From: a virus | Lineage: Duplodnaviria; Heunggongvirae; Uroviricota; Caudoviricetes | Virus record (IMG/VR): IMGVR_UViG_2703718822_000010 | DNA length: 64,000 nt | Strand: one strand, 5' to 3' | Shown here: in pieces, positions 9,001-12,000 of the stretch | Layout: each line of letters opens with the position of its first letter | Position numbering within the stretch: the first letter of the stretch is position 1 | Position numbers: made by a program

Positions 9001-12000
9001 CAACAAATTCGTCATTATCATTTTGATGATCATCCCAGGCGATAGCTTTTAAAGATGATTCCCGAGCATTAGATGGCTCTTCTGCGCTCTGTGGTCTCAT
9101 TGACCCTATACCAGAGCTTAGCCACTCAGGGCGAACTCTTAACGCGTTGGCTAATTCGACCATTTTACGTGATCCGGTTGTTTTACCAGATGACATCTTT
9201 TGTATGGCTGGTTGTGATACCCCCACCATGTCTGCAAGTTGTGCTTGTGACAACCCGGCTGAACTCATGGCGGCATTTAGTCTTTCTGCGAATGTTTTCA
9301 TACCTGTAATCTATAACCACGGTTATCAAAAGTAAAACAACAATTGTTATTGCTCTGTTGTATAACTCATGTTATTTTTGGTTATGCTTTATTTGCTGTA
9401 GAGGTATGCTCATGAATTTAGTGATTCAGCGAGCCTTGAATATTGTTGGCAGTCAAAAACGACTTGCAGCTGATTGCGGCGTATCACAGCCCGCTGTTCA
9501 TAAATGGTTGCGAGGCGGAAAAGTTTCTCCTGAAAAAGTTTTCGCTATCGTTAATGCCACCAATGGTCAGGTTAAGGCTTACGAAATTCGCCCGGACTTA
9601 CCGCACCTGTTTCCTCATCCGAACCAGGCTGAATAAGTAACACCGCTCTTTAACATTGCTGGTCGTTCACCTCTAACAGGGTGAGCAAACATCAGTGGCA
9701 AACCCATTGGGATTGCCGCTTAACCCCATATCAATATAGGAAAATTAACAAATGTCACAAACAAGTTACAGCAAACTGTCGCAGCGCGATATCGATCGCG
9801 CTGAAACGGATTTACTTATCAACCTGTCAGTTCTGACGCAAAGGGGACTGGCGAAGATGATTGGCTGCCATGAATCGAAGGTCAGTCGTACCGACTGGCG
9901 ATACATCGCGGCGATTTTATGTGCGTTCCAGATGGCATCTGATATCAGTCCGATCAGCCGGGCTTTCCAGCATGCCATTCGCGTTCATGCAAATAAAAAA
10001 CGTCCGGTTGGGGCCGGACGTTCTGAGCAAATCCTGATGAATATCTGATATTCAGGCAGGGCATGGAGCAATACACGGGAATAATTCTGCCACATCTGGA
10101 AGAATTTCGCCAGCAACAACACCAACCGCAGCAGCCTGAAGCCGATTGGGTTAACCCGGAGATACCGGGACCGTCTGTGAAGATGTGCAGTCACACCAAT
10201 GTGCAGTCACACCAACCGCAGCAGCCTGAAGCCGATTGGGTTAACCCGGGAGATACCGGGACCGTCTGCGGTATGGAGTAAATCTTGTATGCGAGGGGAC
10301 TATGCGTAATTACGCAACAATTTCACCTCAGTTCTGGTTAGGCGATACAGGGCGAAAACTAAGGAAGTCTGGTCCGGAATGTATGGTAGTGGCGTTGTAT
10401 ATGATGACCTCGCCTCATTCCAATATGCTGGGCCTTTATTACCTGCCTGTTTTGTACATTGCTCACGAAACCGGACTTGATCCTGAAGGGGCTTCTAAGG
10501 GGCTTCAAATGGCTTGCGAGGCTGGTTTTTGCAGCTATGACCATGATTCTGAGGTTGTATGGGTGCATGAAATGGCAGCATGGCAGGTTGGTGAATCGCT
10601 GAAACCTGGCGATAACCGTTGTGCTGGGGTAAGAAATGAATATTCCGCGTTGCTGGAAAATCCTTTTTTATCATCATTTTATGATAGATATAAGGATGAT
10701 TTCCACCTGGATGTCAGACGTGAATCATGTCGGAAAATTGAAGCCCCTTCAGAGCCCCTTTCAAGCCAAGAACAGGAACAGGAACAGGAAAGAGATAAAA
10801 CCCTTCTGGTCCATGGCGAAAAAATCGCCACGGACCCACTGGTGGATTCTTGTCCCGTTCTGACTGAACGTCCAGGACCAGCTGGCATGACACCGGAAGC
10901 AGATTCCGGGTGTTGTGTGCAGCAGGTGCTGCTCGTCGAACCGGAGCAACAACACCAACCGCAGCAGCCTGAAGCCGATTCCGCGATGAGCGGGAAGCCG
11001 ATTGGGTTAACCCGGGCGATGCCGGGACCGTCTGCGGGACGAGTTGATTATCCTGACGTGTTCGAACGGGTCTGGCGTGAATATCCGCATCGGGCAGGGT
11101 CAAACCCGAAGAAATCCGCGTTCAATGCCTGGAGGGCCAGATTACGCGAAGGGGTGTCACCGGATGTCGTGCTGGATGGCGTGAGGCGTTACGCAAGATA
11201 CCTGGAGGCTACCGGGAAAGCGGGAACTGAATTTGTTCAGCAGGCATCGACGTTTTTTGGCCCGAACAGGAATTTCGAAAATCCGTGGTCGCTGCCGAAG
11301 GCTGGCGCAGTCAGCCTGCGTTGCGTGAATCACATTTCTGAACCGGACACCGAAATTCCGCCGGGTTTCAGGGGGTAATCAGCCATGAAAAACATTTCGA
11401 CAGGAGGGATTCTTGAACGGGTGCGCCGTCTGGCACCACCGCACGTGGCAGCACCGTTCCGGACGACCGACGAATGGCGGGAATGGCAACTGGCTGAGGG
11501 CCGGAAGCGCAGCGAGGAAGTTAACCGCCAGAATCACCAGACGCGGGTTGAAAAAATCCTGAATCGTTCGGGCATCCAGCCGCTTCACAGGAAGTGCTCA
11601 TTCGGGAACTACCGGGTGCAGAACGACGGTCAGCGCCATGCTCTGAGTCTGGCAAAATCCATCGCGGCAGAACTGCATACCGGCTGCACGAATTTCGTGT
11701 TCAGCGGTAAACCTGGCACCGGGAAAAATCACCTTGCAGCAGCGATTGGCAACTGGCTGATGGCGAAGGGGAGAAGCGTGATTATCGTCACCGTGTCCGA
11801 TGTCATGAGTGTGTTGCATGACGGCTACGACAACGGCAAGTCTGGTGAGAAATTTTTACAGGAACTTTGCGGGGTAGACCTTCTGGTCCTTGATGAAATT
11901 GGCATGCAGCGGGATACGCGCAACGAGCAGGTCATACTGAACCAGATCGTCGACCGCAGAACGGCATCACTGCGCAGTGTCGGGATGCTGACGAACCTGA

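Follow-up and report, generated by a model that had tools for sequence, protein, structure and literature searches.

A tandem array upstream of a phage replication initiator gene is probably a lineage-specific duplication of initiator linker DNA and not a set of initiator binding sites

In phage lambda the replication origin lies inside gene O and consists of iterons bound by the N-terminal domain of the O protein, and among lambdoid O proteins the type of repeat changes with the N-domain. The replisome organizer G38P of phage SPP1 binds short direct repeats in its own coding sequence, with oriL located inside gene 38. Lambda contains four adjacent sites of 18-19 bp and the phages 933W and P27 contain six, and studies published on the origins of Stx phages deal only with the lambda-O type (PMC7466680). 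Here, we analysed a 64,000-nucleotide stretch of a tailed phage genome (Caudoviricetes; IMG/VR record IMGVR_UViG_2703718822_000010), hereafter referred to as the window. It derives from a lambdoid Stx-type phage in which the genes for cI, cro, cII, the spacer, the initiator and a DnaC-like loader form an immunity and replication module, which is the same setting as that of the lambda origin (cI, cro, cII, initiator, loader). A repeat unit of about 60 bp is located in the 253-bp spacer between cII (9752-10048, plus strand; PF05269, E 4e-26) and the replication initiator gene (10302-11378, plus strand; 358 amino acids), and again inside the initiator gene. We consider it likely that the upstream units represent a recent, lineage-specific tandem duplication, a minisatellite, of DNA coding for the initiator linker, that they are not a binding site and that the origin is located at a set of 11-mers elsewhere in the gene.

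Sequence inspection and a repeat search identified three copies of the unit, here called A (10112-10180), B (10202-10271) and C (10945-11040), all on the plus strand. Their existence, also borne out by shuffling of the window, had been noted in the initial annotation, which placed them at 10119, 10209 and 10947-11035, correct to within a few bases. The spacing from A to B is 90 bp and that from B to C is 743-766 bp, C being located in the linker-coding part of the initiator gene, between the N-domain and the C-domain. The first 36 nucleotides of the unit, AGCAACAACACCAACCGCAGCAGCCTGAAGCCGATT, show 100% identity for A versus C and 89% for B. For the second half, GGGTTAACCCGG(G)AGATACCGGGACCGTCTG, with the core GGTTAACCCGG(G)AGATACCGGGACC, the identity of B to C is 92%, the 3' end of B being closer to C than that of A, which lacks one G of CCCGGG. 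A 25-mer from the unit, GGTTAACCCGGGAGATACCGGGACC, matched the window twice at a threshold of at most 3 mismatches, in B and C, the copy in A being missed through a 1-nucleotide gap; it had no match in any of 100 shuffles of the window. Copy C contains 23 extra bases at 10981-11003, CCGCGATGAGCGGGAAGCCGATT, which are flanked by the direct repeat GAAGCCGATT. The junction between A and B, which the initial annotation did not mention, consists of a perfect 16-bp tandem, two times ATGTGCAGTCACACCA (10183-10214, plus strand), that is part of the 90-bp period. Each unit also contains a short inverted repeat, CCCGG-N5/6-CCGGG; as a motif, CCCGG-N6-CCGGG was found 4 times across the window versus 2.1 times expected, which is not significant.

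The polarity of the duplication could be read from two outgroups. One is a full-length initiator homologue in a Rac-like prophage of E. coli DEF2 (77% DNA identity), and the other is represented by phage Tritos and many E. coli prophages with genes for a "replisome organizer", which have only the C-terminal module in common with the window, from about position 10916 and at 83% identity. In DEF2 and Tritos alike, the unit inside the gene is of the long form, with a segment of 23-24 bp, and upstream copies are absent. Since the long form is present in the gene and nothing similar is found upstream of it in either outgroup, C is the ancestral copy. Copies A and B, both of which have the same 23-bp deletion with the GAAGCCGATT repeats at its edges, are derived from it by deletion between these repeats, and in strain 23CRST047 (locus L006) the upstream units are still of full length. 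The source copy and the direction of derivation are thus both identifiable, as for a variable tandem repeat or segmental duplication. A search with the unique segment of the spacer (10049-10111) against other contexts recovered this lineage only, and not the state before the duplication.

Copy C is located in low-complexity linker sequence that goes with the C-terminal module of the initiator, a part of the protein that tolerates change. Compensated -1/+1 indels at about 10985-11025 of the window, relative to L001 and L002, result in about 50 nucleotides of C being read in another frame, giving the peptide SGKPIGLTRAMPGP in the window lineage versus QREADQVVPENTGQ in DEF2 and Tritos. The linker peptide is therefore essentially unconstrained.

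We classified 37 loci that carry upstream units by measuring the length of the spacer between two anchor motifs. The spacer is 246 bp with two units in 30 loci and 156 bp with one unit in five, while a single locus, TOE17, has three units in 336 bp and another, 23CRST047, has three full-length units of 113 bp that retain the 23-bp segment, in a spacer of 405 bp. The number of upstream units among homologous modules, a comparison that the initial annotation had proposed, is thus 1, 2 or 3, with a period of either 90 or 113 bp. The 1-, 2- and 3-unit variants contain the same 16-bp junction tandem, which is found at every unit junction of the 3-unit variants, and the same outer junctions, as in a copy-number polymorphism. 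The 1-unit variants include two different crossover products and encode intact initiators of 358-366 amino acids, and the initiators of the carriers compared are at least 97% identical. In 23CRST047, all four copies, namely the three upstream units and the C of the same strain, have undergone a change of GAA to GAT that is not seen in the window lineage. This change, common to the copies of one strain, and the outer junctions shared by both lineages indicate a single origin followed by concerted evolution.

The copies also take part in deletions. In E. coli SW071619 (L008, 1922-2333), an upstream unit is fused to copy C, the N-domain of the initiator is deleted and the gene is annotated as a pseudogene. 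The variants with one to three units and the SW071619 fusion are the products expected from homologous recombination among direct repeats, and we infer that they arose in this manner. The SW071619 deletion also removes both of the 11-mer clusters described below, and this prophage is presumably replication-dead.

To place the array in the wider family we surveyed 87 loci that encode an N-domain of the window type, at 48-100% identity, in E. coli prophages, IMG/VR contigs and Betaproteobacteria. Only in L053-L058 does the linker unit give rise to a match of more than 21 nucleotides between the gene and its upstream region. Among these loci, the upstream copies are hence limited to one closely related lineage of Stx-type phages.

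A history in four steps would account for these patterns. A full-length copy of C, comprising about 100 bp of linker-coding DNA, would have been placed in the spacer between cII and the initiator gene and then amplified with a period of 113 bp. In most carriers, a slipped deletion between the two GAAGCCGATT repeats would have shortened the period to 90 bp. Expansion and contraction by unequal homologous recombination may have followed, with gene conversion involving C keeping the copies alike. We consider the array to be probably without an essential role and probably not what the initiator binds. Its visible effects are a leader lengthened by 90 bp with each unit, a spurious upstream open reading frame (ORF) of variable length and a recombination hazard that can delete the N-domain of the initiator.

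Another repeat in the same gene has the characteristics of iterons. Two 11-mers of the type GAAGGGGCTTC, 11 bp apart, are located at 10485-10506 on the plus strand (cluster 1), and two more in inverted orientation at 10740-10761 on the minus strand (cluster 2). All matches to the 11-mer with at most one mismatch in the 64-kb window are inside the initiator gene. Between the clusters is an AT-rich trough (10630-10719), which has the lowest GC content of the region (0.28-0.32 in 60-nucleotide windows) and is a candidate unwinding region. We also considered the trough as a family-wide feature and rejected this, as it is inconsistent among homologues: the minimum is 0.22 in the window (40-nucleotide window, at +360) and 0.32 in L011, while the trough is weak in DEF2 and absent from the high-GC loci L009 and L013.

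The positions of the 11-mers are conserved. In 80 viral loci at 48-100% identity, AAGGGGCTT with at most one mismatch yielded 161 matches at +150-250 and 192 at +400-500 and hardly any elsewhere; these two narrow bins hold 353 of about 460 matches. Homologues from Caldimonas, Contendobacter, Sterolibacterium and Methyloversatilis, for which the protein identity is only 47-61%, have the 11-mer in the same places within the gene. In cluster 2, the number of sites (1-5) and their orientation vary and the encoded peptide alters as well (EAPSKPL versus KGLGKGL) while the motif is kept, which indicates constraint at the DNA level. Genes with a Tritos-type N-domain have no GGGGCTT and contain instead GTCAC[G/A] repeats, four at +129-160 and five at +389-430. 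The repeat type thus switches with the N-domain, as expected of iterons and as is the case for lambdoid O proteins. We observed that the GTCAC[G/A] repeats (L002, 1893-2963; L134 and L135, 893-1963) have a spacing of 10-11 bp and form two clusters, in the same geometry as the GGGGCTTC clusters.

Helical spacing, family-wide conservation independent of the peptide and co-variation with the N-domain are therefore all found for the GAAGGGGCTTC 11-mers. We infer that the initiator most likely binds these 11-mers within the coding region of its own N-domain, where the two clusters flank the AT-rich trough; the segment that they enclose, at about 10485-10761, is the probable origin. The proposal in the initial annotation that the origin is inside the gene as in lambda O looks right in this respect, but the place is another one and so is the repeat. 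Approximately 20 members of the family also have two or three 11-mers directly upstream of the start codon (38 matches at -50 to -1), which are absent from the window lineage. The layout of iterons both upstream of and inside the gene, as previously suggested for the window, is hence real in these relatives, but it is formed by the 11-mer and not by the 60-bp unit. In L068, L079 and L095, the upstream 11-mers are located at about positions 1450-1500 of the locus, an operator-like place that suggests autoregulation.

The first alternative, that of the initial annotation, is that the 60-bp units are binding sites for the initiator, with C marking the origin and the upstream pair serving in autoregulation or titration or as a second origin. 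It would explain why repeats are present both upstream of and within the initiator gene and why each unit has an inverted repeat, and the concerted evolution of the copies as well as the upstream 11-mers of the 20 or so relatives, which make upstream autoregulatory binding a theme of the family, are in line with it. We nevertheless regard it as unlikely. The unit is independent of the type of DNA-binding N-domain: its core, CAGCAGCCTGAAGCCGATT, is present in Tritos-type genes, which have a different N-domain, where it occurs once, at +655, with none upstream, and also only once in DEF2, a homologue with respect to the N-domain. The unit is not conserved in position across the family, no other family member has an upstream copy, and near-identical phages differ in having one to three copies of units of 90 or 113 bp. 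Spacings of 90 bp and then 743-766 bp differ from the clustered, regular arrangement of iterons, and the array has a GC content of 0.53-0.63 with no AT-rich neighbour. The few substitutions observed in upstream units include changes to the arms of the inverted repeat, which reads CCCAGG in unit B of 75/02 Stx and GATAGCGGG in the first unit of 23CRST047. Elsewhere in the same gene there is, moreover, a repeat system that is much better conserved.

Five points weigh against the interpretation of the array as a duplication without function, several of which would favour binding sites. Every carrier has at least one upstream unit, which also fits selection. The nucleotide diversity of the spacer among the carriers is low, 0.001 versus 0.006 for the N-domain and 0.024 for cII, which could reflect constraint. 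The arms CCCGG-N6-CCGGG are kept in DEF2 and Tritos despite the difference in reading frame, and the GAAGCCGATT(C) of the unit agrees with the iteron complement, GAAGCCCCTTC, in 9 out of 11 bases. Finally, we found no binding or replication experiment on this module in the searchable literature, nor any description of these repeats or of this origin. The last unit would always be kept because an unequal crossover that reaches zero units would delete the gene. The low diversity of the spacer is uninformative with regard to constraint, since diversity is equally low in the C-domain, with 2 variable sites among 338 bp, and the variation in the region is patchy and mosaic. Retention of the arms across the frame change would by our own estimate be a chance event of about 15% at a background identity of 83%, and both this retention and the 9/11 match are within chance at the observed identity.

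A related possibility is that the array is a functional cis element of recent acquisition, a decoy or operator for the initiator or a host factor, that acts through the GGTTAACCCGG-N-CCGGGACC dyad or through the half-match of GAAGCCGATT to the 11-mer. It would then replace the upstream 11-mers of the 20 or so relatives, and its copy number would tune the expression of the initiator or the timing of replication. We give this possibility a small probability only.

Somewhat less probable still is that the array acts through the transcript or through the spacing of genes, by tuning the translation of the initiator via the upstream ORF or the leader length, or by separating an oop-like antisense promoter from the initiator start. 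The ORF ends 21 nucleotides before the initiator start and is in frame in the 1-, 2- and 3-unit variants, as it must be since 90 is a multiple of 3, and an oop-like antisense element adjoins the array, but in 23CRST047 the ORF ends after 41 codons, far from the start of the initiator. The window and 23CRST047 differ by four substitutions in the unique part of the ORF, all of them nonsynonymous, and RNA structure is no higher than in shuffled sequences, with folding of the leader and of single units on both strands giving z-scores of -0.25 to -1.2 and +0.86. A scan of the array region (10049-10301) identified no promoter-like or terminator-like site, and Rfam gave no match within the units.

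The upstream ORF of 72 codons (ORF72; 10063-10281, plus strand) arises from the repeats. It was suspected to be spurious in the initial annotation and very probably is, because its length follows the copy number of the array: it encodes 41, 42, 72 or 102 amino acids depending on the repeat variant. Its frame is not conserved among relatives, and the substitutions in its unique 5' part show no sign of purifying selection. That ORF72 is a real small protein, the internal repeats of which are mirrored in the DNA, is thus highly improbable, since even though it is annotated in all deposited relatives, has a PHROG family of its own (phrog_2751, E 4e-55) and shares its reading frame with the initiator linker in the first half of each unit, its length is variable, its sequence is of low complexity and has no match in Pfam or NCBIfam, and the PHROG profile has exactly 72 positions, suggesting near-identical members from one lineage.

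The initiator consists of an N-domain, an acidic and PQ-rich linker, a C-domain and a DnaT-like C-terminal tail. Its identification as a replication initiator, made previously, agrees with the match to phrog_1701, annotated as "DnaD-like helicase loader", and with the DnaC-like partner gene. Searches against Pfam with the whole protein and with the N- and C-domains separately gave nothing meaningful and no detectable similarity to lambda O or to replisome organizers. In a sequence search against PDB, the DnaT C-terminal tail was the only match: amino acids 335-358 of the initiator (11304-11375), that is its last 25 residues or so, ending in EPDTEIPPGFRG, resemble the C-terminal tail of E. coli DnaT (2ru8, 6aep and 9zbt; E 0.008-0.025). 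The pair of initiator and DnaC-like genes mirrors the dnaT-dnaC operon of the host. Directly after cluster 2 is a (CAGGAA)n run (10767-10790) that encodes QEQEQE; it is present in all distant homologues and polymorphic in length in close relatives, the initiators of which have 358-366 amino acids. A hairpin in the linker, CCGGAAGCAGATTCCGG (10893-10909), was flagged as terminator-like and overlaps with the recurring motif GAAGC(C/A)GATT, which contains the PEAD codons.

The other genes of the module are a cI-like repressor gene (8594-9301, minus strand; Peptidase_S24 and helix-turn-helix domains), a cro-like gene (9358-9636) and the gene for the DnaC-like ATPase (11385-12125), which is followed by a DUF1627 gene. 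Antisense to the 3' end of cII, in the place of the lambda oop RNA, the minus strand contains a strong intrinsic terminator (10024-9997) and a match to Hrs13 of Rfam (9993-10065) that is weak and below threshold (28 bits, E 2e-4). The terminator region is about 79% similar to the 3' ends of cII in P22-like phages of Salmonella.

The DNA of the region has an identity of 99.9% to Escherichia phage phiSTEC1589-Stx1c and of 98-99% to the Shigella phages POCJ13 and 75/02 Stx and to phage PhiR5_2. The same junction is present in about 80 complete E. coli genomes. In E. coli O104:H4 2011C-3493 (L133; 2537278-2539657 of the record), the module of cII, array and initiator is 99.5% identical to that of the window and has two units. 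We considered a link to the Stx2a phage of the O104:H4 outbreak and rejected it: the module in 2011C-3493 is located in a lambdoid prophage adjoining ynfH/dmsD, and stx is unannotated in the stretch examined.

The interpretation of the array as duplicated linker DNA affects how such loci are annotated. ORF72 (phrog_2751) is probably a by-product of the repeats, and the locus illustrates that repeats adjoining an initiator gene are not necessarily iterons. Because the array repeats a segment of the initiator gene in direct orientation, recombination between the two can inactivate the initiator, as seen in SW071619; this hazard is one route by which prophages may become defective. The 11-mers provide a testable location and sequence for the origin of a widespread and uncharacterised initiator family that has no Pfam model and ranges from Stx1-converting phages of E. 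coli and Shigella (POCJ13, 75/02 Stx, phiSTEC1589-Stx1c) to many prophages of E. coli and to Betaproteobacterial prophages.

Compared with lambda, the probable origin in the window is similarly located inside the initiator gene, near the boundary between N-domain and linker and with an adjoining AT-rich stretch. Unlike in lambda, the candidate iterons have a length of 11 bp and form two clusters at a distance of about 250 bp, the second in inverted orientation, and the partner is a DnaC-like ATPase and not lambda P; the 60-bp units do not correspond to the sites bound by O. As for G38P of SPP1, the initiator is proposed to bind short direct repeats in its own gene. Tritos-type genes with the same C-module are annotated as "phage replisome organizer", whereas the N-domain of the window has no match to PF09681, and that of Tritos matches only at E 0.12. 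Plasmid iteron systems such as P1, F, RK2 and pPS10, with iterons at the origin and separate control or operator iterons, are resembled by the approximately 20 relatives with upstream and internal 11-mers, unlike which the window lineage has the linker-derived array upstream and no 11-mers there. Copy-number and unit-length polymorphism, identical junctions, concerted evolution and deletion between dispersed copies are features that the array has in common with variable-number tandem repeats and segmental duplications of phages and bacteria. It differs from typical variable-number tandem repeats in that its source is coding DNA of an adjacent essential gene, and it is best classed with these repeats and duplications.

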